Under the pieces are notes generated by a model, which searched no databases, was not told where the DNA came from, and saw nothing but the letters and a program-made list of their open reading frames with translations. A stretch of 64,000 bases of DNA from IMG/VR virus record IMGVR_UViG_2524614843_000001, positions 39,279 to 103,278 of that record; one strand, 5' to 3'. Shown one piece after another: positions 5,009 to 51,872 of the stretch (positions are counted from its first letter, which is position 1; each line of letters opens with the position of its first letter). The DNA comes from a virus. Its lineage: Duplodnaviria > Heunggongvirae > Uroviricota > Caudoviricetes. The translations under genes were made by a program, and so were the position numbers.

Positions 5009-5141
5009 TAATCCGGAGTAGATCGTGGATAGGTAGAAGTTGGGAATTTTTATGCTTTCCAATATTTATTAACTACAGATAGATAGAAAGATAATATCTA
5101 TTGGAGCGTCAAGATTTTCCCAACTCAACCTCTCCGGATTA
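5009..5141. repeat. Nested inverted-repeat element, copy 1 (TAATCCGGAG...GTTGGGAA...CCAATA-[AT-rich core TTAACTACAG + GATAGATAGAAAG]-TATTGG...TTCCCAAC...CTCCGGATTA)
   Basis: Three concentric inverted-repeat pairs around an AT-rich core; second copy at 17699-17860. Confidence 0.7.
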
Positions 5142-7740: not shown

Positions 7741-7759
7741 GTCACCTGTGACTTACTTA
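7741..7759 (-). promoter_or_regulatory. Class-A motif copy (GTCAcctgTGACTTACTTA); includes stop codon of ParB-1 and ends 3 nt before ParB-2 ATG
   Basis: Minus reads gcTAAGTAAGTCAcagGTGACataATG. Confidence 0.55.
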
Positions 7760-8427
7760 GCGGTGAAGAGAATGTGAGCGAGAGCGTAGCCGGCATTAGT
7801 CAGCGCATCCTCTTCGGTAAAGCCTTGTTGCTCGCGGACGTTTTCAATCAGCTCGCGGATACGGATGGCGTCTGCCACCGGCACTTTGAAGCGGAGGATT
7901 TCGTGGGTTTTGACCTTTTCGCTCAGCGGCTCAACCACCGGTGCTTCTGGCGTCAGCTCTTCTGGCGCTGAAAAATCAGGAATTTCCAAGGCATCCAGAT
8001 CAATGCTGGTCGCTGCAAACAGATCATTGAGTTCGCGGTCACTAATCGGCATGAAGCTGGTGAGCTCTGGAAGATCAATATTCAGACTGGCAATGACCGC
8101 ATTCAGCGCGTCAATATCGTCGGCGCCGTAGCGCGCGTTATCCAGCAGGCCAATTTCTTTGGCCTCTTCATCGCTAATTGGGCCCAAGTTGAAAATCGGC
8201 ACTTCTGCCAGGCCAATTCGGATGGCTGATTCACATCGATGTTGGCCACCCAAAATTTCCAGAGTTAAACCTTCATTTGAGGGTATTTCGCGCACGATAA
8301 TTGGCTTAAACATGCCTCGGCGCTGAATACTCGCATCCAGTTTTGCCTCGTTATCCGGTGAAACTCGATTCGAGTTCCAAGGGTTAGGTTTTAGAGATCG
8401 CGGGTCAGCTTTTGATTGTCCAGTCAT
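7753..8427 (-). CDS. ParB N-terminal (ParB/Srx nuclease-like) domain protein 1
   Basis: 224 aa; GGQHR motif (EILGGQHRCESA) typical of ParB/DUF262-type domains. Confidence 0.6.
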   Translation of the reverse strand: MTGQSKADPRSLKPNPWNSNRVSPDNEAKLDASIQRRGMFKPIIVREIPSNEGLTLEILGGQHRCESAIRIGLAEVPIFNLGPISDEEAKEIGLLDNARYGADDIDALNAVIASLNIDLPELTSFMPISDRELNDLFAATSIDLDALEIPDFSAPEELTPEAPVVEPLSEKVKTHEILRFKVPVADAIRIRELIENVREQQGFTEEDALTNAGYALAHILFTAK

Positions 8428-10774: not shown

Positions 10775-11419
10775 TTAATCCCCGTCTCGCTCAAGTGCCT
10801 CGCGCCAGGTCTTTTTTGCGAGCTCCGGATTGTCATGCGCTAGCTGCAGCATATCCGCCGATGCCTCGGGGCCGAATTTCGCCTTGAGCCCCGCTGACCA
10901 GTCGTGCTGCAGCGCCTCGCGCATCGTCGCGCGCCCGAGCTCCGCCAGATCTTCCGAAACGCCACTGGCCAGCGCAACGATTTGCCACCACTCCCACACG
11001 TACTTCTTCTGGTTATGAGCCGGAATAGCGACGCCAGCCTCTTGCGCCTTTTGCACCGCGGCCTCCATCACGGACACGGCCACCCCGAAGATCTCACTGG
11101 TCTGCGGCTCAGAAGGAGCGCCGAGCAAGCGCACTTTCAGATCTTGGGTCCACTCGACCACGCCTTCGAGCAGACGAACGACCAAGCCGGCATCGATTGG
11201 ATTGATACCCCAGCACTTGCCAATCTTGTCGTCGTAGAGCTCGAACGCCCAGCGCAGCTCGTTGTGGCGCATGAGGTATTCAGTTTCCTCGCGCGCTTCG
11301 GCTTTTTGCTCTTTGGATGCCTGGCCAATCGACACGATACGCACTGTCGGCATCACGCCGTAAATCCCCATTGTGACGATGACTGATTCGGGCAAGGTTG
11401 GTTTAACGTCGGTTGTCAT
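10775..11419 (-). CDS. Hypothetical protein (about 214 aa)
   Basis: Start placed at MTTDVKPT (11419); coding-like codon usage. Confidence 0.45.
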   Translation of the reverse strand: MTTDVKPTLPESVIVTMGIYGVMPTVRIVSIGQASKEQKAEAREETEYLMRHNELRWAFELYDDKIGKCWGINPIDAGLVVRLLEGVVEWTQDLKVRLLGAPSEPQTSEIFGVAVSVMEAAVQKAQEAGVAIPAHNQKKYVWEWWQIVALASGVSEDLAELGRATMREALQHDWSAGLKAKFGPEASADMLQLAHDNPELAKKTWREALERDGD

Positions 11420-11639
11420 GATCGCTTCCGTTTGTGTTGATTTCGACGTACCCGCGCTTGAGGCGCTTTTTCGAGTACGTGTTGGCGAGCGCAGTTGCTT
11501 CTGCCAAGGAGGATACAACTTGGCTTCGCTCTCCGTGAATTTTATTTTTGCGCCCGCCCCAACGACGAATGACCACTAGATCAAATAGGTCACGGTCGAT
11601 CTCAATTCGATACCAACGATCTTCGCTTTGGAAAAGCAT
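11403..11639 (-). CDS. Small protein, possible WGR-domain protein
   Basis: 78 aa; W..Y......D.....RRWGGR...... pattern reminiscent of WGR domain; weak. Confidence 0.35.
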   Translation of the reverse strand: MLFQSEDRWYRIEIDRDLFDLVVIRRWGGRKNKIHGERSQVVSSLAEATALANTYSKKRLKRGYVEINTNGSDHDNRR

Positions 11640-11661
11640 GGCGTTTCTCCGTAGAGGTGAA

Positions 11662-12144
11662 TCAGCCTTTCAAATTTTCAATTTCGTGTGGGTCGAGGTA
11701 TTCAACATCGTCCCAAGTTTCAAAGTTTGAGCGGTATGCTCTGCAGCACGCTGTTTCGATGCCATTTATTAACTCTGCAATGGCAATTTCTGCCATTCCT
11801 GTCCCTCGATCATTAAGAGAGTGTTGATACTTCAACACCGTAGCTACTATCGAGTTGGGTAACACCTCTCTTGCATATGGCAAGTCGAGTGTGGTGTTGA
11901 TAAACAGGTATTTAGAAAGCGGAATCCCACAGACTTTATCTTGCCAACTGAGCAATCGAATCATGTGTTTTATACAAGCCTTGACCCCTTCGTTGTATTC
12001 ATGGCCCGCGCCACACCTTACGCTGCCTACGGCAACTAAAGCGATTTGCGAAGCGAATCGCTTGCCTGCTGGCATCTGTTTATTGGCATGTCCGAAACTG
12101 ATTAAGTCAATGAGTTTTTCTTGTTCCACGGCTTCTTTACTCAT
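11662..12144 (-). CDS. Hypothetical protein
   Basis: About 160 aa; ORF with phage-like codon usage; no recognisable motif. Confidence 0.45.
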   Translation of the reverse strand: MSKEAVEQEKLIDLISFGHANKQMPAGKRFASQIALVAVGSVRCGAGHEYNEGVKACIKHMIRLLSWQDKVCGIPLSKYLFINTTLDLPYAREVLPNSIVATVLKYQHSLNDRGTGMAEIAIAELINGIETACCRAYRSNFETWDDVEYLDPHEIENLKG

Positions 12145-12781: not shown

Positions 12782-13225
12782 GGTTTCCTTCCTGTCTTAT
12801 CGCTGGTTTTTTATGACGAGCACTGTAACACCGGAGAGGCGCGCGAGGCCATCTTGCGAGGATTTTGTCTACGCATGAACGAAACATTTGCTCGAGGGGA
12901 GGGCGACCTCATGGCGTCGTCCGTGGGTATAGGGGAGGGAAGAGTGCTCGGGGCGTGGGGTTGTGCCGGCAATGGATTCCAGCACTCCGCGTTTTTCTAG
13001 GGCTTCGATTCTGATTTGCTCGCTTTCTCGCTTTTGCTCTCTCGCTTGCTCGCTTGCTTGAATATCGCGCTATTTGACGCACAATCGCGCGCTATTGCGT
13101 TTTCTCTGTCGTGCTAGTATCTGACGCTATTCAATCCGCAAAACGCGCTAGAATCGCTTAAAAACGCTATTGCCTCGCTTGCTTGTTTCGCTTGCTGCTA
13201 CGCTAGCGCACAAAAAGAAAAAGCG

Positions 13226-13256
13226 CGGAATTATCCGCGCTTTCTATTTAATTACT
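13226..13256 (-). terminator. Rho-independent terminator after foreign gene (GCGCGG-ataatt-CCGCGC + TTTTTCTTTTT on minus)
   Basis: Seen on minus strand just 3' of stop at 13260. Confidence 0.6.
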
Positions 13257-13259
13257 TAA

Positions 13260-13889: not shown

Positions 13890-13923
13890 TTTTCGATTCC
13901 TTGTGATTTGATTTAGTTAAACA

Positions 13924-13942
13924 GTCATTGCTGACTTATCTA
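13924..13942 (-). promoter_or_regulatory. Class-A motif copy (GTCAttgcTGACTTATCTA) upstream of foreign gene
   Basis: Motif match. Confidence 0.5.
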
Positions 13943-14518
13943 TCGTTGCGCTTTGTTTTGTGTGTTGCGCTTCGATGAGTTGCATTCTACGCGATACGTT
14001 ATGAACGTCAAGTAATAACGTGCAAGAAAAAGCAAAAAAGTTGATAACTCACTGAAAAACAAAGGAAAAAAATTGATTGTTCCGTCGTTTTTCGCGTGCT
14101 AGTCCAGCGCGTAGCGTTTTGCGTATATAACGCGCGTCAATCCGGCGCGCGCTTGGGCAAATCGCGCTTGCATCTTGTCGCGTCGTGTCGCGTGTTGCAT
14201 CATGCGCAGCAAGCGAAACGCTATGCAAAACGATATATTGTATTTTAATAACCTATTGAAAAATATAATGTTTCCGGACAATCTATCATCCGATAGGTTG
14301 TTCTGCGGCACGTCAATGAGTGCGCCGGCACGCCTTTGAGGCACTCGCCTTATCCCTACGCCACGGCACGACCCTCTCCCATATCCCTAAACCTTGGGCG
14401 CCCGAGTCCGGCAATCCGGAGACTCGCCACTTTACCCGCCCTGCTCTTCCCACGGTTGCCCGCGGCACGCTCGTCCAGCAGAAAAAGCGGCACACCTGCC
14501 GCTCTTCCCTACCTCTGG

Positions 14519-16252: not shown

Positions 16253-16597
16253 TCAAGCGATCAGCATTTTGACGCGGCGGGAGATCTCATTGAATACAGA
16301 ATTGCCAAGCGTGGCCACTTTCACGCCATTGCGCGCCACAATATCAATCGTGCGGATTTGCAGCGGGTCGATGTAGCCGGAAACTGGCATACCGACAGGG
16401 AGTGGAATATCTGTTTTTTGCGGACCATTATTGCGTGTCGTGATGGGAATAACGATCGCATAGTTGGTCGCTTTGAATTCAGGTATGGAAATAATCAGGA
16501 CTTTGCGCGCGTTCTTGTAGTCCATTTCGCGGCCTAATGAACCAGCATCAGGATGTTGCAGCTCGACAATATCGCCAGGATTGAATGAATGGGACAT
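16253..16597 (-). CDS. mazF: MazF/PemK-family endoribonuclease toxin
   Basis: 114 aa; GDIV...PITTR...I.IVAR pattern of MazF/PemK/CcdB fold. Confidence 0.7.
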   Translation of the reverse strand: MSHSFNPGDIVELQHPDAGSLGREMDYKNARKVLIISIPEFKATNYAIVIPITTRNNGPQKTDIPLPVGMPVSGYIDPLQIRTIDIVARNGVKVATLGNSVFNEISRRVKMLIA

Positions 16598-16664
16598 TCC
16601 GGTATTCCTCGTCTTGATGACGATGTTATTATGCGCGCTCCATTGCGGGGCGCGCAGGGGTTGA

Positions 16665-17048
16665 TCAAATCACCACTTCCTCGCCTACAGGTCCGCCAAA
16701 GTCAGCGAGCGTGTAGTCAGCCGAGAGTTGGGACAGGCCGGCGAGAAAATCGTCTTGCGCGATACTGGGCAGATTAAAGTTGATGATCGGCGTATTGTCG
16801 GCGCCTTGCAGTACCCGAGCCTCACCTTGATCGACCTGCTTGCGGACCAGGAAGAAGGTTTCGCCTTCGATTTCAACCTCATGCCACTCGACCGCATCAC
16901 CGCGCTCCAGATGCAGGCGTTTACGCACCGGCGCACTGACGATGGCCGAGAGTGAGTTGCCGACGGCGGCGATTTTAGTGGTAGCGAAGGCTGCGGCTTC
17001 GCCGCTCACGATTTGGTGGCCGAGCTCTTCGAGTGTGGCGGTTTGCAT
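16665..17048 (-). CDS. mazE: MazE/AbrB-family antitoxin (swapped-hairpin domain) with C-terminal extension
   Basis: 127 aa; VGNSLSAIVSAPVRKRLHLERGDAVEWHEV matches MazE/AbrB looped-hinge helix; 67 nt upstream of toxin. Confidence 0.6.
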   Translation of the reverse strand: MQTATLEELGHQIVSGEAAAFATTKIAAVGNSLSAIVSAPVRKRLHLERGDAVEWHEVEIEGETFFLVRKQVDQGEARVLQGADNTPIINFNLPSIAQDDFLAGLSQLSADYTLADFGGPVGEEVVI

Positions 17049-17090
17049 GTTCGTGTCCTCAGTACGTTATAACGTGATGTTATCACATAA
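17049..17090 (-). promoter_or_regulatory. Putative autoregulated TA promoter/operator (palindromes ACGTTATAACGT and GTGATgttATCAC)
   Basis: Palindromes immediately upstream of antitoxin start. Confidence 0.4.
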
Positions 17091-17524
17091 ATTTACGCAC
17101 GCAAGATGGCACTCTGATACAGCCCTGCACCCGCGGCCAGCAGCACGCTAACCGATTATGCTGCCCCGAGCTGAAAAGACAATAGCGATTCCCGACGCAG
17201 AAACCCATCAAATTTCGATTTTCTACCCCTCGGGTATATCACGACTCATCTGAGACGGGAAAATCGCTTAAATCGGGTTTATGCGGATTTCTCGGGCAGG
17301 CGGTCCAAATTGAGCACCACGGCACCCCTACACAACCACCTCTGCCCTCTCCCTCGACCAGTGACCCGCGCGGCGCATCCCACGGCCAAGCCAACCTCCT
17401 GCCTGGGAGTGGACTGCGCGCGCCGGTACCCTATATTGGCCGCCCGCCCCGAAATTTCCGGACAGCCTGGGCGCTGATATTGGCCACCCCGAGCCACCCG
17501 CAGTCAGCCTTGGTCAACCACGGC

Positions 17525-17552
17525 GAGACTGATCTGCCGAGAGTGAGGATGA
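17525..17552 (+). repeat. 28-bp direct repeat (iteron-like) copy 1: GAGACTGatcTGCCgAGAGTGAGGATGa
   Basis: One of 4 same-orientation copies. Confidence 0.7.
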
Positions 17553-17594
17553 CCAGGCTGCGGGACAGGCCGGATACCCGAGGGCGAGTACCGG

Positions 17595-17622
17595 AGAGAC
17601 TGGCGTGCCTAGAGTGGGGATG
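17595..17622 (+). repeat. Iteron-like repeat copy 2
   Basis: GAGACTGGCGTGCCTAGAGTGGGGATGG. Confidence 0.7.
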
Positions 17623-17698
17623 GCTCGTTCCTGAGCCGTGGGTGGCCGCGGCCAGGCTTTCACTCCCAATCCGGAAGTGGCGGACTGCCTGCGGCTCG

Positions 17699-17860
17699 TA
17701 ATCCGGAGGGTGGAGCAACTCGTCTGCTGAGTGGTTGGGAAGTTGGGAAGGTCAGAGTTGGGAAAAAGTGCTCGTCCCAATAGTTTTTATATTAACTACA
17801 GTGGATATATTAAATATTGGTGTGAGGAAAAATTCCCAACTTTTAGGCTCTCTCCGGATT
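17699..17860. repeat. Nested inverted-repeat element, copy 2 (TAATCCGGAG...GTTGGGAA x3...CCAATA-[AT core TTAACTACAG]-TATTGG...TTCCCAAC...CTCCGGATTA)
   Basis: Same architecture and orientation as copy 1 at 5009-5141; flanked by iteron-like repeats. Confidence 0.7.
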
Positions 17861-17881
17861 ACTCAAGAAAATCAATGGTTT

Positions 17882-17909
17882 GAGACTGGTTTGCCTAGAG
17901 TGAGGATGA
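17882..17909 (+). repeat. Iteron-like repeat copy 3
   Basis: GAGACTGGTTTGCCTAGAGTGAGGATGA. Confidence 0.7.
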
Positions 17910-18030
17910 GGCACTCCGGAAGTGCGTCAAACTGCCATTTTCCCAACTCCAAGGCGCCTCATTCCCAACTGCCTCTGTCATACCCTTCCGACCCATACAC
18001 GCGCACAGGCCGGGACTCGGGAAAGGCCTT

Positions 18031-18363
18031 TTAGTGGATGCTGTACTGCCACTGCAGCACGCGCGTCTGGTCCATCAGATCGCCAATCAGTCCGCGCGAC
18101 GCATTCTTCGCCGGAGACTTCCAAGACGCTGCCTTCCACAAGGTCAGGTCAGACAAACGCACAAACCCCCAAGCGGAACGCGAGTAGATATTGCCGGTCT
18201 CACGATCACGACGCACCATCACCAGGCGGGCATAGACCTTGCCATACTCCGCTTCGATGGTCAGCTCTTCATGCTTGTGCAGGCTCGGGTATTCCTTGGC
18301 CATGCGCTCACGCAAGATCTCAGTGGCACGAGTGATGGCATTCTGGATGGCTGTTGATGACAT
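18031..18363 (-). CDS. Hypothetical protein (110 aa)
   Basis: Start at MSSTAIQN with GGAGGA RBS; lies inside the non-coding repeat region. Confidence 0.45.
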   Translation of the reverse strand: MSSTAIQNAITRATEILRERMAKEYPSLHKHEELTIEAEYGKVYARLVMVRRDRETGNIYSRSAWGFVRLSDLTLWKAASWKSPAKNASRGLIGDLMDQTRVLQWQYSIH

Positions 18364-18448
18364 GAGGCATTCCTCCGTGTTGTTGACGGACTCATGTTCA
18401 TGTCTGCCTAGTGGCGCGTGCGCGGTAATCCGGAGTAGCCCGCGGCGA

Positions 18449-18476
18449 GAGACTGGTGTGACCAGAGTGAGGATGG
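18449..18476 (+). repeat. Iteron-like repeat copy 4 (preceded by TAATCCGGAGTAG half-site)
   Basis: GAGACTGGTGTGACCAGAGTGAGGATGG. Confidence 0.7.
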
Positions 18477-18526
18477 GCAGGACGTGCCAAGGTAGGGAGA
18501 GGAAAGGCACAGCCGAGGGAGCCGGC

Positions 18527-18715
18527 CCCACTCCCCGCCTCCTGTCCTTCGCCTCTGCGTCCTGTCGCTTGATCTATCTTCCTTACCTGTGTCCTACCCT
18601 TAGCCCCTACGTGTCCTACTACTTGCGCCCCTATACCCTACCTGCGCGTCTACTTACCCCTCTCTACCTAACCCTACTCTCTCTCGTACCTGTCTGATCT
18701 GTCTCTACCCTATCC
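18527..18715 (+). repeat. About 190-bp polypyrimidine (C/T >85%) tract
   Basis: Strongly strand-asymmetric composition, non-coding. Confidence 0.6.
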
Positions 18716-18728
18716 GGAGTGTCTGTGT

Positions 18729-18965
18729 TTACGGGCGATGCTTGTTAGATGAGGTGGTTGCTAGAGGTGTGTATTTGCCTTGTCGTAAATCCATTTTAGA
18801 GAGCAGTTCGAGTAGCTCTGGTGTGACTTGGATGACGTACCACACTCCCCCGATGAGCAGATAGCAATTAGGGTATTGCAGATCGTAGGCATCAATCTGT
18901 GTGTCGGAAGTGATGGTGATTTCTTCTGTTGAGTTTGGGTCTGTTGATTTGGCGATGAGGGGCAT
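18729..18965 (-). CDS. Hypothetical small protein (78 aa)
   Basis: ORF only; low support. Confidence 0.3.
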   Translation of the reverse strand: MPLIAKSTDPNSTEEITITSDTQIDAYDLQYPNCYLLIGGVWYVIQVTPELLELLSKMDLRQGKYTPLATTSSNKHRP

Positions 18966-19548
18966 GGATAGGTTCTCTTTGTGAAAATGGATGGCGTACC
19001 TCAGTCTGGATGAGGCCTGTCTGTGTGGAAGTATTCTGCCTGAATTGGATGGCGTTTTCTGGTTTGGCCTGTCTCTCTGTCTGTTTCTCTTCCTATCTAT
19101 CTATCGCTCTATCTCTCTGTCTAGCGGGAATGACGTTTCCCTGCGCTCTGCTGCGTTTTCGTGTGTCCGGATGAGTCGTGATATGTCCGGAGCTTGCCCG
19201 CGCGCTCTGTGTGCGATTGTGCGGATTTGTCTGGATGGATGACGAATGTGAGGGAGGATGAATTACCGGAGCAGGCTGATCATGTGTTTTTTGCTGCATT
19301 GATGCTGCATTTCTTCGCGAAGGCTTGAAATTATTGGCATTTTGAATAGGCGGAAATCGAAAGCCTATTTGCATTAAACCATTGTGAATACGACATACGA
19401 GCGTTGATTTGCGGCAGGATTGCGTCACTTTTACAGCAAACAGCGCTGGTTGAATCTTGGAATGCAGATATATTTGGAGGCATGAATAATTAGGTCTTAC
19501 CATATTGCCCATATACACACTTAATCATCTACCATTTGGGAGAATCTC

Positions 19549-20190
19549 ATGCGTGGTTTATTGGCAACCCTGGTATTTACGCTCCTGACCGGCTGCGGCA
19601 CTTTTGTCCGCACTAATGTATCGGTGTTTCACGAGCTGGACTCATCGCTATCTGGTGTCACTTACACGATTGTCCCTTCCAATGAGCAAAAAGAAAGCCT
19701 CGAGTTCCGGTCATACGCCAAGCTGATTAAAAACCAGCTGCAAACACGCGGCATGTCGGAGGTTCCATACAAAGAGGCCAAATACGCCATCTTGATGCAG
19801 TATGGAATCGATAATGGCCAAGAGGTTGTATCGACCTATCCTATTTTTGGCCAGACAGGGGTTAGCAGCACCTACACAACCGGTTCCGTGAACGTGTACG
19901 GCAATACTGCCACCTATAACGAGAGCACCTATGTCACTCCGACCTTCGGAGTTGTTGGTACCGGAACCTCATCAGACACGGTGTTTACCCGCTACTTGAA
20001 CCTAGACATTGTGGACATTGCGAATTCTGGCGATGGAAAGGTGAGAAAGGTCTACGAAGGCAAGGCGATCAGTAAAGGCTCTAGCAGCCAGCTCGCTCCA
20101 GTGATGCCATATATGGTGAAGAGCGTCTTTGAGGACTTCCCTGGCACTAGCGGTTCAACCAAGACGATTGAGTTGCCATTGCAAAAATAA
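19549..20190 (+). CDS. Lipoprotein (plus-strand moron; signal peptide, lipobox LLTGC)
   Basis: 213 aa; GGGAGA RBS; AT-rich promoter-like upstream region and own terminator. Confidence 0.65.
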   Translation: MRGLLATLVFTLLTGCGTFVRTNVSVFHELDSSLSGVTYTIVPSNEQKESLEFRSYAKLIKNQLQTRGMSEVPYKEAKYAILMQYGIDNGQEVVSTYPIFGQTGVSSTYTTGSVNVYGNTATYNESTYVTPTFGVVGTGTSSDTVFTRYLNLDIVDIANSGDGKVRKVYEGKAISKGSSSQLAPVMPYMVKSVFEDFPGTSGSTKTIELPLQK

Positions 20191-20195
20191 GCTGA

Positions 20196-20237
20196 CGTAA
20201 AATTTAGCCAAATAATAAAGGGTGGATTTTCCACCCT
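20196..20237. terminator. Rho-independent terminator (GGGTGG-atttt-CCACCC + TTTATTTT), A-rich on 5' side so potentially bidirectional
   Basis: Hairpin plus T-run after lipoprotein gene. Confidence 0.7.
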
Positions 20238-20250
20238 TTTATTTTGAGGT

Positions 20251-21591
20251 TTAGCAGTAGGCAAGCAGCTCGATGAGTGAGTTTGCGATTGCCTCATCTT
20301 CAAGCTGCCAACATTCTTTGGCGAGATTAGTGACGATACTTGCCAACTTGAAGTTATCAGGCGATCGCTCCTTGAGCAGTTGAGGCTGTGTGTAAAAGAG
20401 CACCAACGCCCAGCGATACAATCCTGCGCTCTTGAGCAAGTGGTTAATCTTGCGCTCTTCTTGAGGCACAGCTGCTGCAGAACAGACGATTTCCTTATAG
20501 GGCGCCGTCAGAGGATTAGGCCATGCGCGCTCTTCCGCCACTTTCCACTTGCAAGCATTACCCCAATAGAGCGCGGTAAACACATGATTCGCGCAGCTCA
20601 GCGGTCGGCTTTTTGAGTAGGGCTGATAAGGCACTTTGGTCAGCAAGGCAACAATTGCATCACGGTTGACGAGTCCTGCCTCAAATGCACTCACTAGCCT
20701 GGCCGTATGATCATCATTTGCTTGATCGGGGAAGAGCGAGCTGATCGTATCGCCGGTCTCTATGAGATAACCCATGTCACACATGCCAAGCTCAGCGAGC
20801 TTTTGCATTACATACATGCCGTTTTCGGCGTAATTGCACAGGTAGATACCCATAGCTCGCTTGAGAGAATAGCGAGTTTTTTGGCATCGATAGTCAAACA
20901 GCGCAGCCTGCTCTGCCGATAGTTGATACCGGCAATCCTCAAAGAAAACCTCCATGTAATGCCGGAATGCTTGGAAAAGCTGGGCATTTGTCCAATTGGA
21001 TTGGACAGCGCCGCTGGCCATGAAATCAACCATCTTGGCGTCAAAGACGTAATCAATGCAGCCATAGTCGAGCTCTTCGGCAGACAGCACATTGCCTTTG
21101 AGCAGGTTCTCACGCATCGAGTTATGAGTGGTTTCAATGTAATGCCAGGCACTCCCCGGCGATTGCTTAATTGGCCATTCGGTTTCGCCTGCAAACCCTT
21201 CCATCTTCATCTGCTGAGCAAAGTCAGTCATGCCATCAGGTGAAAAGAGTCCCGCATTCAGATAGTCAAAAATGATGCGTAGCTTTCCGAGCCTTCTGTA
21301 ATGGCTGGGGTAAAAAGGGGCGACCGAGTGCGGATTATTGAAAGGGCTGGAGCCATTTTTGATACTGGCGCTCAAGTGCTGCACGATGGCTTTTCCGTTG
21401 GGCGCCACTTTCCAAAGATACTCGTTAGCAAGGGTCGTGAATTGTTTTTCTAGCTTTTGAGCTCTCCCCTTTGTCGTACCCAAAAGCTTAGCGATTTCTT
21501 CGATGCTAATTTCAGAGTCTTTCGCCGCGACAGCGCGAGCCGCGTCAAAGTAGGATTTGAAGGTGATGTGATCGTTTGTAGAAGCGGCCAT
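20251..21591 (-). CDS. Large hypothetical protein, paralog A (N-terminal HTH resembling sigma-70 region 4)
   Basis: 446 aa; about 40-45% identical over long stretches to 21932..23356 (e.g. EYLWKVAPNGK, GSAWHY, FMASG.VQS.W). Confidence 0.6.
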   Translation of the reverse strand: MAASTNDHITFKSYFDAARAVAAKDSEISIEEIAKLLGTTKGRAQKLEKQFTTLANEYLWKVAPNGKAIVQHLSASIKNGSSPFNNPHSVAPFYPSHYRRLGKLRIIFDYLNAGLFSPDGMTDFAQQMKMEGFAGETEWPIKQSPGSAWHYIETTHNSMRENLLKGNVLSAEELDYGCIDYVFDAKMVDFMASGAVQSNWTNAQLFQAFRHYMEVFFEDCRYQLSAEQAALFDYRCQKTRYSLKRAMGIYLCNYAENGMYVMQKLAELGMCDMGYLIETGDTISSLFPDQANDDHTARLVSAFEAGLVNRDAIVALLTKVPYQPYSKSRPLSCANHVFTALYWGNACKWKVAEERAWPNPLTAPYKEIVCSAAAVPQEERKINHLLKSAGLYRWALVLFYTQPQLLKERSPDNFKLASIVTNLAKECWQLEDEAIANSLIELLAYC

Positions 21592-21624
21592 ATCGGTCTA
21601 CCTAAAGTCATACGAGATTTAAGG

Positions 21625-21921
21625 TTATTCAGCTAGCTGCAGATCTTCGGCAAAAGCCGTCATCGAGTCGATGATGTCGCCATTGGCATCAACCAGGTCG
21701 GTGATCACGCCTTCACTGGTGTAATTCACGCAGGTTGAGCCCCAATCTTTCCGGCCGACTACAACACGGTCGTCGTGATTGGGCGCGATCTCGATGTTGA
21801 CATTCTCGCCGTAGCGAATGGCGACCGGTTCGATGATGCGCTGGCGCAGGATTTCGATGATCATCTCGACCTTTTCGGCCAGTTTTTCGTTTTGCTCTTG
21901 TATGAGTGTTTCGCGGTTCAT
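21625..21921 (-). CDS. Hypothetical protein (98 aa) between the two paralogs
   Basis: ORF with plausible codon usage. Confidence 0.45.
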   Translation of the reverse strand: MNRETLIQEQNEKLAEKVEMIIEILRQRIIEPVAIRYGENVNIEIAPNHDDRVVVGRKDWGSTCVNYTSEGVITDLVDANGDIIDSMTAFAEDLQLAE

Positions 21922-21931
21922 TGTTGAATCC

Positions 21932-23356
21932 TTATCGGTAGTACATCAGTGCTGCCAGCTTGTCGGCGATTTCACAGTCATCCATTTTCCAATGCTCGCT
22001 CAGGATTTCCTTGACCAAAGCAGCCAGCTTAAAGTTTTCCGGTGATTGCTTTTCGAGGAACTCGGGCTCGGCGCAGTAAAGCGTCAGCGCCCACTGATGC
22101 AATCCGGTGCGAGATAGCAGCTCGGAAATGGTGCGATCTTCTCCTTCCAACTCGAGGGCGAGCTTGATCATTTCCGACTTAGGTGTATTGAGCGGCTCAG
22201 GCCAGTTCAGCGGCTTCTGAATCTCCCAGTCGCTATAGTTCGCCCAGTAATGCGCTCTAAAAACAAGTGCGGCGCAATCCAGAGGTCGCTCGATACTCAC
22301 ATGCTCACTGCATTCTTCGGCGATGGCCATTTTGATCATGTTTTCGCGGTCAATGAGTCCGGCTGTGAAAACATCGGCGAGTCGTGCGAGTGCGCCTTCT
22401 TTTTTCAAATTGGTAAACAGAGACGTTTGCGGATTGCCATATCGCGGCAGCAAATCAGCGTCGCATAGACCAAGTTCAATCAGCGTTTCCATAACCTTCG
22501 TGCCACCGGCTTTGTAATGGCAAAGGAATCTAGCCATTCGCTCTTTGAGGTCGATCAGGGTGGCGTAGCAGCGTTGAGATAGGGCTCGGAGCTCCTCTTC
22601 TGGCAGCTCATATTGGCATTTTTCATAAAAATCGATCATGTACTGGCGGAAGCTCTCAGTCAGCTTGTCATCGTGCCAAGAGCTTTGAACGAGACCGCTC
22701 GCCATAAAGTCGATGACCTTTGCCTCAAAGGTATAGCGATTGTGAGCAAAGGCGGCTTCATCGGCAGAAAGAACAGCACCTTTGAGCAGATGATCGCGTA
22801 TCGAGCTGTTCATGCTATCCAAGTAATGCCAGGCGCTCCCTTCATGTTTCTCGATTGGCCATTCTTCTTCACCATCAAAACCGTCACACCTTATTTGTTC
22901 CGCGAAATCGAGCATCAGGTCGTGCGAAAACAGACCGGCATCCAGATATTCAAAAATCGTCCGTAACTTAGTCAGCCGATTATTTTTGGGGTAGGGCAAC
23001 GAAGAAATCCAATGCCTTTTGAAAAAATCAGCTCGAGGCTTTTTGAGGATGCTCAGCAGATGTTCAATAATCTCTTTGCCATTTGGTGCCACTTTCCACA
23101 GGTACTCGCCAGCTAGGAAGATGAATTGCTTTTCTTTCTTTTTGGCGCGTCTGACTGTGGTACCCATGATCGCGGCAATTTCATCGATGCTGATATTCTG
23201 GTCTTTGGCCGCGACAGTTCGAGCGGCATCAAAGTAGTCTTGGTAGCTCAAACCTTTGCTGCCGATACCGATTCGATTTAGTGCATGTATCGCCTTCTCT
23301 TCATTCAAACCAGATTCGATAAGGATTTTCAAAGATTGCTCGTATCGAGTTCCCAT
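21932..23356 (-). CDS. Large hypothetical protein, paralog B
   Basis: 474 aa; paralogous to 20251..21591. Confidence 0.6.
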   Translation of the reverse strand: MGTRYEQSLKILIESGLNEEKAIHALNRIGIGSKGLSYQDYFDAARTVAAKDQNISIDEIAAIMGTTVRRAKKKEKQFIFLAGEYLWKVAPNGKEIIEHLLSILKKPRADFFKRHWISSLPYPKNNRLTKLRTIFEYLDAGLFSHDLMLDFAEQIRCDGFDGEEEWPIEKHEGSAWHYLDSMNSSIRDHLLKGAVLSADEAAFAHNRYTFEAKVIDFMASGLVQSSWHDDKLTESFRQYMIDFYEKCQYELPEEELRALSQRCYATLIDLKERMARFLCHYKAGGTKVMETLIELGLCDADLLPRYGNPQTSLFTNLKKEGALARLADVFTAGLIDRENMIKMAIAEECSEHVSIERPLDCAALVFRAHYWANYSDWEIQKPLNWPEPLNTPKSEMIKLALELEGEDRTISELLSRTGLHQWALTLYCAEPEFLEKQSPENFKLAALVKEILSEHWKMDDCEIADKLAALMYYR

Positions 23357-23369
23357 TTTTCTCTCCTAT

Positions 23370-23894
23370 TCAACGCATTTGAGGCTTTCTAGCGCTCTCG
23401 ACAGAATTATTTTGCTGCACTTGATCTGGCATATTCAGGCGCTCTTGCTCGATCTGCTGGATTCCCGCATCGACCAGGCCGATCAGCTCTTCCTCAGTGG
23501 CGCCACACTCAAATCCATCCAGAAGCCGGCAGATTAGGCTGGCCAGCTTTGGACTGCGGGCGGTACCGGTGGTGTGACCAATTAGCGCTCGCCAGCGCAT
23601 TGCATCGGCAGCAAGGTCGCTCACCTTCGGGTCACGCTCTACCTGTAAATGCCAGTCCAGCAATTGAGACACGGCCTCACGCGGCGAGCTGAACGAGTCG
23701 GCTGTTGCACCAATTGTCACCAGCTGCTCGTCAACCGCATTGCGCCAGGCGTCCTCTTGGCAGTGTGCGCATTGGAATGGCTCGTACCAGCGCTTGATTG
23801 ACGGCGACTGCGCCTCGTATTGCTGCTGGGTCATGAATCGCTTGAGGCCTGTCACGCCGATGGTGCGCCAGGCTATTTTGTTTTCAGATGCCAT
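23370..23894 (-). CDS. Hypothetical protein (174 aa)
   Basis: ORF. Confidence 0.45.
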   Translation of the reverse strand: MASENKIAWRTIGVTGLKRFMTQQQYEAQSPSIKRWYEPFQCAHCQEDAWRNAVDEQLVTIGATADSFSSPREAVSQLLDWHLQVERDPKVSDLAADAMRWRALIGHTTGTARSPKLASLICRLLDGFECGATEEELIGLVDAGIQQIEQERLNMPDQVQQNNSVESARKPQMR

Positions 23895-24128
23895 ATTTCG
23901 CTTTCGCCCTCATCATGCTTGAGAAATCGACGTAGCTTTGCCAGCTGTCGTACCAGAATCGCCACCGGTTATAAGCGTGTGAGGTGTAGGTCCAAGGTTG
24001 AACTTCTGGATTTTCCACCTCGATGTAGCGCTTGCTTGGAGGCAGAAAGTCACCGCCAAACTCATTCAGTGGTTTCCTTCTGCGCTCCATTTCAGCAGGG
24101 TCTCGGCCAGTCAGATGCAACCCCATAC

Positions 24129-24536
24129 TCACACCTCCCGGGCGATGACCTGATATGCCTGCCAGCACTGCTCGCGCATATCCGGCGTAACCAACATCCG
24201 GTCGAGGGTCTGCAGGTATTCTTCCTGTGTTGCGAACTTCGCCGGTCGGAGATCTTCGCGGCCACTGCAGAAGCCCAGCCAGTCGAGCACATGAGCCTTC
24301 AAATTGGGCTTATGGACACGCCAGTTTTTCAGGTCGTACCGACCAACATAGGGCTCGGCCTCTGTGAAGCCAGCCTGCTCATGCACGATCTTAAAATCGC
24401 ACTTGTCGTAGCCGCCGTGCTCGGGTGCGGTACGGCTCCAGCTGGAAAGTAGCTCATCGGCGTGGCCAAAAGTATTGAACTCAGCCGGCTTGGTTGGGGC
24501 GCCCTGCCCTTCTGCTCTGATTAAGGTGATTTTCAT
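24129..24536 (-). CDS. Hypothetical protein (135 aa)
   Basis: Start at MKITLIRAEG with AAGGAG RBS. Confidence 0.5.
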   Translation of the reverse strand: MKITLIRAEGQGAPTKPAEFNTFGHADELLSSWSRTAPEHGGYDKCDFKIVHEQAGFTEAEPYVGRYDLKNWRVHKPNLKAHVLDWLGFCSGREDLRPAKFATQEEYLQTLDRMLVTPDMREQCWQAYQVIAREV

Positions 24537-24671
24537 GGCGTCACTCCTTCGTTTCGATGGAGTAATTGTCACGCTCGCCTACTGGTGCGTGATTGGTGAG
24601 TTTGAGCTGGCCTTGGGATTTTCTGGCGCTAAAAATACCCACATTGCTGCGGGTATCTCTGGCGCTATCGC

Positions 24672-25514
24672 TTATGCTTCGGACGCGGATTTACTCACGC
24701 GATTAAGCAGATCTTCGGCAATACGCTCTGCCGACTCCACACCGCGCTGTTCAACGATTCCGATGCGATTTGTGTCATTCAGCAAATCAGCCACCTTTTC
24801 CGACCATTCGCGCGTTACCGCAGCCATTTGATCAACAAAGGCGTTCTTGTCAATTTTGCCTTCTGAGGTCGTCTGAGCAATGCAGGCGTCGCGGAAAGTG
24901 GCCAGATGCGCTTCAAACATATTCATCAGGCCAATGCACGGCGTCGGTGCGTCGGCATACTCAGCGCTAATACCGTACTGCTCTAGCACCTGAGTTTCAT
25001 CAGTAATGGTGATGCCGGTCATCGCGCAAGACAGGATGCTCAGTTTTGGGCCAGCAATCCATTTCTGGATTTCGCTCAAGATTTCCGCCAGCTCAGCCAA
25101 TTCATCAATTGCCTGCTTGTTTTCAGGGTCGATGTTCTTGCGGGCGTTGATTAGCAGCTTGTCACATTCAGCCTTGAATTCATCTTCGACAGCGAGGATG
25201 GGGTCGTATTCGGTGGCCAGCGAACTATTTGCAAGGGTCAGACGTGCGTACATTGTGACCGAGCCAAGCATGTCTCCATACGTGGCCTTGTTCATTGCGC
25301 CCAAGAAACCTTTGGCGATCGCTTCCGGCAGCTCATTTGCTTTCGCTTTCAAGCCTTCGATCATATCCGCCTTTTGGTTTTGCTCACGAATCGCCAGGAA
25401 TAACGAACCGAAAGCCGCACTCATATTGGCGTTCATGAGATCGGGAACGTGATGCAAGGCGCGCGATACGCTTTTTTGCTGTTTCATGATTTGATCAGGT
25501 GTGAAGGTAGACAT
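24672..25514 (-). CDS. Hypothetical protein (280 aa)
   Basis: ORF. Confidence 0.5.
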   Translation of the reverse strand: MSTFTPDQIMKQQKSVSRALHHVPDLMNANMSAAFGSLFLAIREQNQKADMIEGLKAKANELPEAIAKGFLGAMNKATYGDMLGSVTMYARLTLANSSLATEYDPILAVEDEFKAECDKLLINARKNIDPENKQAIDELAELAEILSEIQKWIAGPKLSILSCAMTGITITDETQVLEQYGISAEYADAPTPCIGLMNMFEAHLATFRDACIAQTTSEGKIDKNAFVDQMAAVTREWSEKVADLLNDTNRIGIVEQRGVESAERIAEDLLNRVSKSASEA

Positions 25515-25532
25515 TTTTATTCCTTTTGAGGT

Positions 25533-26072
25533 TTACCAGGTGGCGTAACCTGTATCGGTTACTGCCGATTGAGACGAGAAACGGAAGTTCCGAATTTCGC
25601 CAAATGACTCGGCCTCTTTTGGGCGCGGGTCAAATTCTTTTACTGAGCCGAAGTACCACTCGGAAGTCTGATACTCGTAGCGCTTCTCTTTGTGGTTCAT
25701 GAAAGGCGTGAGCTCATACAGACCGATCTCGATCTCCGGCTCTTCTCGATCACTAACCGCAGGCTTTAGCTGAATGTGCAGCTTCATGGTCATCGCCTCC
25801 GCACCGGTCGATAAGCCAACGGAGCAATCCGCTGGCAGCTCGATCTGTTTGATCAGCCAAAAGATCGCTTGGTCATCCGACTGAACGAACAAATCGTCCG
25901 GTAGGTCATTCATTTCGATCTTGCTCAGCCCGCCATCTTCGTTGCGGTACCGTGTGACAAACAAATCACTAACCGACTCGCAAATGGCAAAGAGATCGCC
26001 GGCTACTTGCAGTGTTACGGGGTGATCGCCAACTGCGATGCTGAGATCAACCAAATGCGCGTTTTCATTCAT
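25533..26072 (-). CDS. Hypothetical protein (179 aa)
   Basis: ORF. Confidence 0.5.
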   Translation of the reverse strand: MNENAHLVDLSIAVGDHPVTLQVAGDLFAICESVSDLFVTRYRNEDGGLSKIEMNDLPDDLFVQSDDQAIFWLIKQIELPADCSVGLSTGAEAMTMKLHIQLKPAVSDREEPEIEIGLYELTPFMNHKEKRYEYQTSEWYFGSVKEFDPRPKEAESFGEIRNFRFSSQSAVTDTGYATW

Positions 26073-26213
26073 GACTGGTTACTTCGCGTGAAACTCGATG
26101 CGTGTATTGTGCAACTCAATTCGCGGCAAATAATAAGTCAGCGCGGACTGATTAACAAGCCCCAATTTATGCCCTTGGCACTAGGAAAAACCTGAATAAA
26201 TAGAAAGGCAGAA

Positions 26214-26250
26214 AGAAAGATAGATAGATAAATGGATAGATAGAAAGAAG
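26214..26250. repeat. Class-B motif, tandem copies (AGAAAGATAGATAGATAAATGGATAGATAGAAAGAAG)
   Basis: GATA-repeat family. Confidence 0.6.
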
Positions 26251-26251
26251 G

Positions 26252-26286
26252 CTAAAAAGATAGGCTGGAGCTATCTATCTCCAGCC
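26252..26286 (-). terminator. Terminator hairpin GGCTGGAG-ctatctat-CTCCAGCC followed on minus by TATCTTTTT
   Basis: After stop of 26303..27100. Confidence 0.6.
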
Positions 26287-26302
26287 TTCCTTGTTTCAGG
26301 CA

Positions 26303-27100
26303 TTACGCGGTTTCTTTCTTGTATTTCGCTACGATGGTTGAGTTTTCGAGCAGACGCAAACCACTACGACCGGAACGCTCAGCGATTTTCATTGCAGGGA
26401 ATAACTGCATAATCTGACCAGTCTGAGAGTTGATTGTGCCTGACTTATAGCCTGCAGCTTCCATTGCGGAACGGATAACGCTTGAATCGCATTCGCCGGT
26501 TGCAACCAACTTATCCAGCGCAATCTTGGTATAAACCGAGATAGCCACATCGTCTTGCAGGTAAGCAAAGAGGTTCTTAGCCTTCTCTTTCACCTTGACC
26601 GCGAGTTGATCGATGATCGCTGCAGTTTCAGTTGGTCCCTCGCCAGCACTGAGCTCGACAGTGGCAGCGACTTCACGCGCAGCCCGACCCTTACCCGCTG
26701 TCGCTTTTGGCGCTTCTTCGTTTGCACTTGCCTTCTTACCGGCAGCGCGGCTGCGAGTGCTGGCTTTCTCGGATGGTGTGGCAGAGGCCTTCTCTTCATC
26801 CGGAGCGGCCGACTCTTGCTCGGCGTAGATTTTTTCCCGAGCCTCAATCGAATTGATCACCGCCTCTTCATCTTCGATGGAGACTGACGCAGCAACCGCT
26901 TCGGCTTCCGGCTCAACTTCGACTTCACGCTCGTCACTGGCGCTCAGCGCTGTTGGTTCAAGACTGCCGATCAGCGCATCGAGCTCGGCATCAGAAACGA
27001 TTTGGTTTTCGCCGGCTGCAGCGGTAACTGATGATTCATCCAGACCTTGCAGCAGAGCGTCCAGATCGGCAGAGGTAGCTTGGTTGATTTCTTGACTCAT
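26303..27100 (-). CDS. Hypothetical protein with highly acidic N-terminal half
   Basis: 265 aa; D/E-rich first about 100 aa. Confidence 0.5.
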   Translation of the reverse strand: MSQEINQATSADLDALLQGLDESSVTAAAGENQIVSDAELDALIGSLEPTALSASDEREVEVEPEAEAVAASVSIEDEEAVINSIEAREKIYAEQESAAPDEEKASATPSEKASTRSRAAGKKASANEEAPKATAGKGRAAREVAATVELSAGEGPTETAAIIDQLAVKVKEKAKNLFAYLQDDVAISVYTKIALDKLVATGECDSSVIRSAMEAAGYKSGTINSQTGQIMQLFPAMKIAERSGRSGLRLLENSTIVAKYKKETA

Positions 27101-27161
27101 GATTTCATTCCTTGTCGGTTCGTTTTGATGTGTTGTCGCTATCGACAGGACGAATCATCAG

Positions 27162-27539
27162 TCATGACCTGTGGGAGAGGTCAGGCGCTTTTTCTTGCCC
27201 CAAAGCCTCGCCCTTCGCTTCCGCCCGCGCTGCAATTTGGGCTTTTAGCTCTTCGATGTACTTTAAAACCGCGCGCTGGGTGCCCTCCATTGCTTCGGCC
27301 ATATAGGGTTTGCCAGCCTTGCGGTATGCAGCAATTCTGGCGCCGATGCGCTGGTAATCTAGCTCCACGATTTCCAGCTGGATGGCGAGCGGTCGGTTGT
27401 ACCAAATGTTGGGTACCAGGTAATACTCGCCAGTGGCAGGGTCGTGATACCGCAAATGAGGATAAAGCCGCGTGTCCGGCGTGAGCAGTACCAGATCATC
27501 TGCCGGCTTTGGCAGTGTTTGGCGGAACTCGGGGTTCAT
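27162..27539 (-). CDS. Hypothetical protein
   Basis: ORF. Confidence 0.45.
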   Translation of the reverse strand: MNPEFRQTLPKPADDLVLLTPDTRLYPHLRYHDPATGEYYLVPNIWYNRPLAIQLEIVELDYQRIGARIAAYRKAGKPYMAEAMEGTQRAVLKYIEELKAQIAARAEAKGEALGQEKAPDLSHRS

Positions 27540-27668
27540 GCACGTCACCATGTTTCATACCCCTGTTTGTTGTGGAGACTGACCATTACCTTCACGTCGC
27601 CATCAGTCTTGAATTCAACCAGCTGCGCGATCGCCTTGAGCATCGGTAGCATGGCCAGCGCGCCCGCC

Positions 27669-28079
27669 TCACCGTTGTTGCGAATGAACAGATCGAGCTG
27701 CTCTTTGGCCTGCCGCGCGACGGCTGGAAATTCTTGGTTTGTGATCATTGCGCAGTAATTCCTCTGAATCTTGTTTGGTCATGAAGATATGCTCGATGCC
27801 ACTCCAGACCATGAAGTAGCACGGCACACCCATAAACTTGCCCTTGTGATAGGTCACGCACCGGTCTTGCAGCAGGTGAAGGCCTTTTGCGTGCCGGCCG
27901 AATGCGTACCCGAGCATGGAAGAGACCATCTTTAGCGACACCTTCCGGAAGAAGGTCTTGGCCGATATGCCTCTGGCGTTGTCCGTCATGCTGTCGAGCG
28001 CCTCGATAGCCCACCACCGCGTAGGCAGATCGCAACAGCGGGTATGCAATACGAGCCTCATTTGCGCTTCTCCCGACAT
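27669..28079 (-). CDS. Hypothetical protein (Cys/Trp-rich)
   Basis: ORF; start uncertain, overlaps small ORF 27545..27748. Confidence 0.35.
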   Translation of the reverse strand: MSGEAQMRLVLHTRCCDLPTRWWAIEALDSMTDNARGISAKTFFRKVSLKMVSSMLGYAFGRHAKGLHLLQDRCVTYHKGKFMGVPCYFMVWSGIEHIFMTKQDSEELLRNDHKPRISSRRAAGQRAARSVHSQQR

Positions 28080-30035: not shown

Positions 30036-30092
30036 ATCTGGCTTTCTTGCTGTCTTTCTATCTATCTATCGCTCTTTCTAGTAAGCGATCTA

Positions 30093-31488: not shown

Positions 31489-31566
31489 TCTATCTATCTA
31501 TCGCTCTATCTGTGATTGATATTCTCTAGCTGCTTTTCTGGCTATCGATGGGAGATAGATAGAAAG
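31489..31566. repeat. Two class-B motif arms in inverted orientation (TCTATCTATCTATC ... GAGATAGATAGAAAG) flanking a 50-bp spacer
   Basis: Palindromic arrangement. Confidence 0.6.
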
Positions 31567-31585
31567 CCATGCCTATCACCAAGCC

Positions 31586-51641: not shown

Positions 51642-51872
51642 ATGGCCATCACAACCCTGAAAAAAATACCTCGGCAGTTTATGTACGCCGGTGTGAATCG
51701 TTCTTGCGCTTCTGATAGAATGTTCCTCGTCTCCCGAGAGGACTTTGATCGTTTGATCGGGCCAAATCACGAGCGTCTCTCCCAAGATAGAGTTAGGGAG
51801 ATCGCTACATTCATGGTTCGTAAGATCAATAGTCGCGGCAAAATAAATGGAAGAATCAAAAAAGTCGGTTAG
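51642..51872 (+). CDS. DUF1778/TacA-like antitoxin (short; C-terminal toxin-binding region conserved)
   Basis: 76 aa; DRMFLVSREDFDRLIGPN resembles DUF1778 C-terminal segment; GAGGTGA RBS. Confidence 0.45.
   Translation: MAITTLKKIPRQFMYAGVNRSCASDRMFLVSREDFDRLIGPNHERLSQDRVREIATFMVRKINSRGKINGRIKKVG

Follow-up and report, generated by a model that had tools for sequence, protein, structure and literature searches.

The 2.5-kb stretch at positions 17,049-19,548 of a 64-kb window (the 64,000 nucleotides of the Caudoviricetes record IMGVR_UViG_2524614843_000001 that were analyzed here) had been put forward, in a preliminary description made from its letters alone, as a candidate replication origin with iteron-like repeats, nested inverted repeats and an AT-rich unwinding element. 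The best-supported reading of its sequence is that it is built from two kinds of components, namely: a copy of an operon-start module that is found throughout the phage family, here called Element B, and iteron-like, strand-oriented sites that are private to the stretch. We consider it roughly 40% probable that the stretch serves control or maintenance at the level of the DNA, as a group of regulatory nucleoprotein sites without origin function. Nothing shows it to be a replication origin, and the sequence cannot tell whether it is one, since the phage lacks close relatives and there is no protein that can be named as the initiator.

Element B consists, in order, of TAATCCGGAG, three copies of GTTGGGAA (at 17734, 17742 and 17757), a 12-bp spacer (N12), CCAATA (17777), a 32-bp core, TATTGG (17815), another N12 spacer, TTCCCAAC (17833) and CTCCGGATTA. 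The core has a G+C content of 19%, ranks second among the 40-mers of the window for AT content and carries TTAACTACAG at 17792-17801. The three classes of arms around an AT-rich core are thus real, as first described, although a single TTCCCAAC lies inside the element, while the others are found at 17940 and 17962. If these distal sites are counted, the GTTGGGAA-type sites are arranged as 3 + 3 around the core. The third of the direct repeats discussed below (R3) and an exact match to the IHF consensus, one of only 2 in the window, fall between the proximal and the distal TTCCCAAC sites.

A second copy of the module, Element A, is located upstream of the terminase genes (Table 1). Elements A and B share the outer arms TAATCCGGAG / CTCCGGATTA and the layout GTTGGGAA-N12-CCAATA-N32/34-TATTGG-N12-TTCCCAAC, in which the spacings of Element A are N12/N34/N12, and both have the polar centre TTAACTACAG on the same strand. 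All 8 copies of GTTGGGAA/TTCCCAAC in the 64 kb fall at the two elements. The N12 spacers, on the other hand, are neither conserved between the copies nor complementary to each other. Since it is the motifs and their distances that are conserved, and the spacers are not complementary, the arms are likely to be protein sites on duplex DNA rather than parts of a selected hairpin. As single strands, Elements B and A fold with z-scores of -3.5 and -4.2, respectively, and both are able to form cruciform arms. Isolated arms are also present in the stretch: one of the two extra half-sites proposed earlier is an exact match to the left arm of Element A, whereas the other, placed at 18712, is one partial match (CTATCCGGAGTG). 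Scans for the module pattern in IMG/VR, the GTDB genomes and the JGI metagenomes returned either nothing or chance matches (4 and 19), all of them lacking the remaining parts of the module. From this arrangement, Element B is best read as an expanded copy of a dispersed operon-start control module, and not as an unwinding element specific to an origin.

Modules of the same design are present in the relatives of the phage. Since the window has no DNA match in the phage collection and its closest helicase homologue is only 58% identical, the comparisons are architectural and not at the level of bases. An inverted repeat around an AT-rich core is found upstream of the small-terminase gene (terS) in 4/4 relatives, namely: L006, L007, L008 and SSU5. 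The sequences of the arms vary by lineage (Table 1), while the position and the design are retained. In SSU5, three module copies were read and four places match; the three copies that were read share a single orientation, are all intergenic and stand ahead of gene blocks, i.e. the terminase block, the DnaB/primase block and a third one. When one SSU5 copy is used as the query, 12/12 records of SSU5-like phages show 2-5 matching places per genome. A multi-copy module distributed over a whole family makes a pattern unlike that of a single origin. The comparison with related phages, which had been suggested as a check of the origin claim, recovers equivalent modules; these are multi-copy and are best read as not specific to an origin.

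The surroundings of terS indicate what the module may be associated with. In the window, Element A is followed by a sigma-70-like promoter and then, at a distance of about 50 nt from the promoter, by a hairpin with a T-run. The hairpin and T-run ahead of terS are found in all relatives read (L006, 4195-4240; L007, 5177-5225; L008, 4668-4715; SSU5, 90-133). The promoter and hairpin resemble the short terminated leader of the lambda late operon, an analogy which suggests that the structural operon may be controlled by antitermination. The likeness to a lambda-type late leader and cos region extends to the order of the parts, with Element A, the promoter, a short leader and the hairpin with its T-run preceding terS; unlike in lambda, no Q-like antiterminator was identified here, and the several near-identical module copies per genome speak against a pure cos function. 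Since the same module occurs at multiple intergenic sites and has a promoter and terminator beside it at Element A, we read it as a multi-copy control site at the starts of operons.

Two further observations were made in SSU5. The deposited linear record (NC_018843.1) starts and ends in the AT-rich core of the terS module (103264-103299 and 1-17; end of L010 and start of L009). If these ends are physical, the site of the packaging cut may lie in this module copy; if they follow a mere convention, the coincidence is meaningless. In addition, SSU5 (L010) has six copies of a unit of ~31-45 bp, GATAATAACNCCAANAAGAAAACAANNTGTTTA, at 26346, 28509, 30145, 30735, 31689 and 32501. Most of the units that were read precede small early genes and have the look of a recurring promoter with a palindromic operator half on each side.

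The private component of the stretch comprises four direct repeats of 27-28 bp (R1-R4 in Table 1), which share one orientation and have 1-2 mismatches each to their consensus. All four copies reported earlier are real, except that R2 starts at 17596 and not at 17595. Dinucleotide shuffles give an expectation of 0.00 direct-repeat matches, and there are no further copies on either strand of the window. The similarity ends at 28-30 bp, beyond which the sequences cannot be aligned; for this reason the repeats are discrete sites, and not the remnants of a longer duplication. The repeat pattern has 0 matches in IMG/VR, in 185,579 species genomes (GTDB) and in the JGI metagenomes. This absence indicates that the 28-mer is neither a host repeat nor a CRISPR repeat. 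The start-to-start spacing of the copies is irregular (71, 286 and 567 bp). R1, R3 and R4 appear to be phased at 10.5 bp per turn, which is meaningless across distances of 350-900 bp. Neither a hairpin within the repeat nor a dyad symmetry of the Xer/dif type is supported by the four copies. As far as their sequence goes, the 28-bp repeats behave like iteron-type binding sites.

The repeats contain a short motif that is itself unevenly distributed. GGATG occurs 14 times on the + strand of 17400-19300 and 0 times on the - strand, where about 3 are expected, making this the strongest such cluster in the window. Four of the copies are located inside R1-R4, two others are at 18036 and 18345, and the rest form the right-hand part of the array (Table 1), with seven of the 14 within 18966-19300. 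A purine follows in 13/14 cases, giving GGATGR. Between the repeats and this part of the array lies a tract that had been called C/T-only over 190 bp; it is only 77% pyrimidine, but it still is the most pyrimidine-rich 150-bp stretch of the window, at about 5 standard deviations over the mean. It is without a known origin role. Its complement on the - strand is 44% G, with many GGG/GGGG runs (e.g. GGGTATAGGGG ... GGGGCTAAGGG) that could form G-quadruplexes, either in the DNA or in a - strand transcript. The DNA that follows was described as CT-rich up to 19140, which is incorrect: 18716-19260 is G+T-rich (65%), with the (CTAT)n motif at 19088-19123. This motif is the one copy in the stretch of a (CTAT)n/GATAGATAG family that is also seen in other intergenic gaps of the window, and AATCGCTTAAA recurs at 13152. 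TCCGGA-type sites are enriched in the stretch. The stretch thus concentrates several short intergenic motifs of the phage, together with 28-mers that are seen nowhere else.

We propose that the module is an operator-type assembly site, in which a lineage-specific regulator would bind the arms across a bendable AT-rich core and, once bound, would switch the adjacent transcription unit. The four 28-mers and the ten other GGATGR motifs would serve as iteron-like sites for a second sequence-specific protein, presumably encoded by the phage, which may coat or loop the stretch, and host IHF could help the bending from its consensus on the side of R3. The resulting complex could control the flanking small genes and the mazEF toxin-antitoxin operon, or could serve the maintenance of a plasmid prophage.

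The P1 C1 operators, the RK2 KorB operators and the phi29 p4 sites are multi-copy, operator-flanked promoter modules. As in these systems, short inverted-repeat sites are found here at several intergenic positions, with arms around an AT-rich core, and the arm sequences differ between related genomes while their position is kept. Unlike them, the modules described here span 130-160 bp and have three nested classes of arms, and there is no promoter predicted in Element B. The last point also counts against a control function: no sigma-70-like promoter is predicted either inside or beside Element B, and its transcriptional role is consequently proposed by analogy only. Several other points weigh in the same direction. 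No binding protein was identified for the repeats or for the arms. The oriented GGATG array crosses two genes antisense, which is unusual for operators, and the repeats, being found nowhere else in the window, are less typical of the operators of a global regulator than of iterons or centromeres. Finally, close relatives are absent, as seen from the distance of the nearest helicase and from the orphan status of the DUF7717 protein and a 280-aa protein of the phage. If the control function is correct, the repeats and modules outline the regulatory circuits of a hardly studied branch of SSU5-type phage-plasmids, some members of which carry resistance genes in Enterobacteria. The whole group seems to share the nested module as part of its design, and the module could be used as a handle for finding the regulators and for mapping the starts of operons. 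It also calls for caution, since repeats together with an AT-rich palindrome are insufficient for calling an origin when the palindrome proves to be multi-copy.

Table 1. Features of the stretch, of its flanks and of the terminase region of the window, followed by the corresponding modules of the relatives.
Feature	Position	Strand	Remarks
Direct repeat R1, GAGACTGATCTGCCGAGAGTGAGGATGA	17525-17552	+	one of four copies
Direct repeat R2, GAGACTGGCGTGCCTAGAGTGGGGATGG	17596-17623	+	
Direct repeat R3, GAGACTGGTTTGCCTAGAGTGAGGATGA	17882-17909	+	between Element B and its two distal TTCCCAAC sites
Direct repeat R4, GAGACTGGTGTGACCAGAGTGAGGATGG	18449-18476	+	86 bp upstream of the DUF7717 start codon (other strand)
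Element B, nested inverted-repeat module	17699-17861		outer arms TAATCCGGAG / CTCCGGATTA
Two further TTCCCAAC sites	17940-17947, 17962-17969		beyond R3
IHF consensus WATCAANNNNTTR, exact match AATCAATGGTTTG	17870-17882	+	abuts R3; consensus match only
Solo arm TAATCCGGAGTAG, exact	18426-18438	+	identical to left arm of Element A
Partial arm-like sites	17667-17679, 17912-17924, 18710-18721 (CTATCCGGAGTG)		incomplete matches
GGATGR array, right-hand part	18830, 18989, 19008, 19047, 19169, 19233, 19237, 19256	+	
Pyrimidine-rich tract	18527-18715	+	44% C, 32% T, 12% G, 12% A
(CTAT)n motif CTATCTATCTATCGCTCTATCTCTCTG	19088-19123	+	family dispersed through intergenic gaps of the window
Small gene, DUF7717 / phrog_5014	18031-18363	-	Pfam DUF7717 E=1e-5; phrog_5014 E=2e-14; positive codon score
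Possible 78-codon open reading frame	18729-18965	-	public gene caller (Logan record); no homologues
MazF toxin gene	16253-16597	-	left flank of the stretch
MazE-like antitoxin gene	16665-17048	-	left flank of the stretch
DUF4136 lipoprotein-like gene	19549-20190	+	right flank, opposite strand; then bidirectional hairpin 20217-20239
Element A, second module copy	5009-5141		upstream of terminase genes, between small-terminase gene and its upstream gene
Sigma-70-like promoter	4993-4964	-	16 bp downstream of Element A
Hairpin and T-run	4915-4888	-	directly ahead of small-terminase start codon at 4866
terS module of L006			38-nt arms; TTAACTAC within core
terS module of L007			19-nt arms
terS module of L008 (Burkholderia gladioli)			AAAACTTGGGTAC, 70 nt, GTACCCAAGTTTT
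terS module of SSU5			CCTGCTTCCGTATATAT ... ATATATACGGAAGCAGG; outer arms TCTGGGAG / CTCCCAGA

The function first proposed, an iteron-type origin of either a plasmid prophage or lytic replication, would have an initiator bind the 28-bp repeats (perhaps through GGATGR) and IHF bend the DNA, upon which the core of Element B would melt. We regard this as unlikely. The repeats are indeed unique to the stretch, the core is among the most AT-rich sites of the window and the IHF consensus adjoins R3; however, the AT-rich module is multi-copy and family-wide, such that the proposed origin architecture stands with respect to its iteron-like repeats, its inverted-repeat element is better read as the dispersed module, and as a whole it cannot be judged from the sequence. 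Toxin-antitoxin genes lie next to the stretch, a typical feature of regions that serve plasmid maintenance. Furthermore, there is no repA of the type found in pHCM2 in the window, its place apparently being taken by a RES-Xre pair, which leaves the replicon of the phage unaccounted for, and at the matching place on their maps SSU5 and pHCM2 both contain non-coding DNA that is rich in repeats. Against this stands the lack of a recognizable initiator: the neighbouring genes have no sequence match in Pfam, NCBIfam, PHROGs or the PDB that would indicate a Rep protein, and neither Rep nor DnaA-like proteins nor any other initiator family turned up in the neighbour and window proteins examined with Pfam, PHROGs and NCBIfam (25/37 families listed). 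There is also no DnaA box with ≤1 mismatch in the stretch, and boxes with ≤2 mismatches are not enriched. The GC-skew analysis that had been suggested as a check was run on the 64-kb window, where it is weak evidence; the cumulative skew has a local minimum near 14 kb, about 3 kb from the stretch, and the most AT-rich site of the window is found there as well. The closest model of such an origin is the P1/RepFIB-type iteron origin of pHCM2, a related phage-plasmid from the same supercommunity, in which the annotated repA (11054-12109) is flanked on both sides by 19 iteron-like 17-mers with the consensus CTCTCTACAGTGGATAG, many of them 21 or ~40 bp apart. Both have sites of ~17-28 bp in the same orientation in non-coding DNA, with an AT-rich segment nearby and the context of a plasmid prophage, but here only four irregularly spaced repeats without a recognizable Rep are found in place of the 19 tightly spaced sites, the 28-mer is unrelated to the pHCM2 iteron, and the pHCM2 origin is located elsewhere on the genome map. 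At 17795-17807, the centre of Element B matches the pHCM2 iteron core over the 13 nt ACTACAGTGGATA without a mismatch, and a weight matrix made from the pHCM2 iterons has its best match in the window at this centre, although 10.5% of shuffled windows score equally with the full 17-nt matrix. A tblastn search of the window with pHCM2 RepA gave only a hit at E = 0.07 to an open reading frame (ORF) of 280 aa located 5 kb away. This ORF was set aside as a Rep, given that it has no homologues in 1.8 billion representative proteins and that its AlphaFold model, with a confidence score (pLDDT) of 41, is unusable; the ORF and the iteron resemblance are an unconfirmed lead. A neighbouring 446-aa protein was likewise rejected, both as a relative of SSU5_107 and as a Rep, having no similarity to the former, no phage homologue and no PDB, Pfam or NCBIfam match. 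SSU5_107 itself (~400 aa, at the same map position) is unannotated and is also found on IncX plasmids, away from their replicons. We hold it to be even less likely that the stretch belongs to a new type of replicon, in which an initiator too unlike the known Rep proteins to be recognized would bind the 28-mers and GGATGR motifs and the modules would be promoter-coupled unwinding sites that fire at several places of the genome. Such a replicon would resemble the multiple R-loop origins of T4, and the phage family does have genes for gp32-, RecA- and (in relatives) UvsW_N-type helicase proteins.

Three other explanations seem to us improbable, to much the same degree. Plasmid centromeres such as parC and sopC consist of direct repeats, and those of N15 are dispersed; the stretch could accordingly be a partition centromere, or a segregation or handcuffing site, at which a small centromere-binding or ParB-like protein would occupy the same-orientation repeats. 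Both the repeats and the GGATGR motifs are direct and keep one orientation, the repeats lie in non-coding DNA, a ParB_N protein is encoded at 7753-8427 (relatives have one or two such proteins, which in SSU5 are annotated as ParB-like partition proteins), and the contig, at 103 kb, has a length typical of the phage family, which suggests a plasmid prophage. Unlike in these centromeres, there is neither a tandem array nor an adjacent partition operon, and the spacing is irregular; no ParA was recognized in the window, the parA gene of SSU5 sits elsewhere, and nothing links the ParB_N proteins to the repeat motifs. A non-coding RNA (ncRNA) locus has equally poor odds. It would produce one or more + strand transcripts with GGAUG units, acting as a protein sponge or as sibling small RNAs, and the C-rich tract would be a Rho-utilisation site. 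The GGATG strand bias is complete (14 to 0), the + strand ORFs all score as non-coding, and the 189-nt tract, with 44% C and 12% G on the same strand, is a plausible Rho-loading site. RNA-based replication systems are also reported for mycobacteriophage plasmid prophages (PMC7157519). However, Rfam has no match at the gathering score in the window, the only hit in 16900-19700 being a spurious miRNA match at E = 4.8; no tRNA or tmRNA was found; the candidate stem in the 28-mer has no covariation among the four copies; the pyrimidine tract and its surroundings are no more stably folded than shuffled sequences, whichever strand is taken (z = 0.1 and +1.8 for the tract); and there is no convincing + strand promoter near the repeats. 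The CsrA core motif ANGGA is not enriched, and the idea of a CsrA sponge was dropped. It had been stated at the outset that evidence of ncRNAs would refute the origin; there is no Rfam match and no significant RNA fold in the pyrimidine tract, whereas the GGATG bias and the C-rich tract keep the idea alive. The highly expressed gene CYRAN_43 of phage Cyrano was also considered, but is not at the corresponding locus. Lastly, we give little credence to non-functional debris, i.e. gene remnants and scars of recombination within a hyper-variable moron region, where the repeats would be leftovers of duplicated junctions. The stretch does lie among accessory genes (mazEF, the DUF4136 lipoprotein-like gene and orphan ORFs), solo arm half-sites are present, and there are no relatives to show conservation. 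Decay would hardly produce the complete GGATG strand bias, though, and also in conflict with it are the sharp end of the repeat similarity at 28-30 bp between unrelated flanks and the motif spacing in the two modules, which is identical to the base.

The counterpart of the stretch on the maps of the relatives was also inspected. It spans ~90,380-91,600 in SSU5 (L010, 28382-29620) and 41117-42554 of NZ_CP029951.1 in pHCM2 (L011, 10191-11628). In SSU5, it is non-coding for 510 bp up to the next annotated gene, and in pHCM2 ~1.4 kb is unannotated. It contains five direct repeats of 28-31 bp (GCCATTACCCAATACACGGAGAAGAAC-like) and three tandem 30-mers, which are unannotated and unrelated to the 28-mers described here. 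Rfam has no match in the SSU5 region.

Two other non-coding gaps of the window, located in the same arm as the stretch, have features of their own. The gap at 12782-13259 has four CGCTATT repeats (13068, 13090, 13125 and 13165). In the gap at 13890-14518, the 40-mer at 14233 has the highest AT content of the window (12% G+C), the cumulative GC skew reaches its local minimum, and a CAATCCGGAGACT site at 14412 links the motif of the module arms with the beginning of the 28-mer. Judged by such rough measures, this gap is no worse a candidate for an origin than the stretch itself. A CCTA/CTCCGG consensus for site-specific nicks was discarded since it belongs to phiKMV-like phages and not to the SSU5-type family.

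The coding content of the stretch is low: roughly 1.9-2.2 kb of the 2.5 kb are non-coding. The preliminary description listed only one short gene, at 18031-18363. This gene is real, although a second, doubtful ORF of 78 codons is also called at 18729-18965, with a marginal codon score of 0.07 compared to 0.20-0.37 in most neighbouring genes; all remaining ORFs of the stretch score below zero, indicating non-coding DNA. The DUF7717 protein has homologues in large lytic phages that infect Pseudomonas, Klebsiella, Caulobacter and Synechococcus, and for this reason the gene is not a plasmid Rep. When the DUF7717 protein and the 280-aa protein were used as queries for close relatives, both were found in this phage only, and single-protein searches for relatives of the locus gave nothing.

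The proteins encoded in the window include a large terminase (2957-4213, - strand), a split DnaE-type polymerase, ribonucleotide reductase and SbcCD-like, RecA-like and gp32-like proteins. The proteins that match DnaE best come from Rhizobium phage RHEph10, Salmonella phage-plasmid SSU5 and Pseudomonas phage nickie, with amino-acid identities of 40-45%. The source is a large siphophage of the SSU5 type, roughly 100 kb in length and probably a plasmid prophage of Chitinibacter tainanensis, the species under which NCBI lists its proteins (contig of 103,278 bp). The 2.5-kb stretch is located in the variable early/accessory arm of this phage type. To its right, ~11 genes at 20251-27748 (- strand), including those for the 446-, 474- and 280-aa proteins, have no recorded or detected Pfam match; the nine that were tested have no NCBIfam match, and the 446-aa protein has no PHROG or PDB match either.

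A further motif, GATAGATAG(AAAG) / CTATCTATC, is found mostly between genes, at 5078, 26219-26247, 30058-30070, 30609, 31490-31511, 31554, 37849 and 53092, and also at 19088-19123 in the stretch. Probably a further regulatory motif of the phage, it is also present in the core of Element A, and at 31490-31577 two copies face each other as an inverted repeat. Finally, the window proteins include a RES-domain toxin and an Xre-type antitoxin, which are probably encoded by two + strand ORFs at 51847-52831, a placement that is inferred. This probable locus is where pHCM2 has repA and its iterons. Together with mazEF (16253-17048), the RES-Xre pair gives the element two addiction modules.

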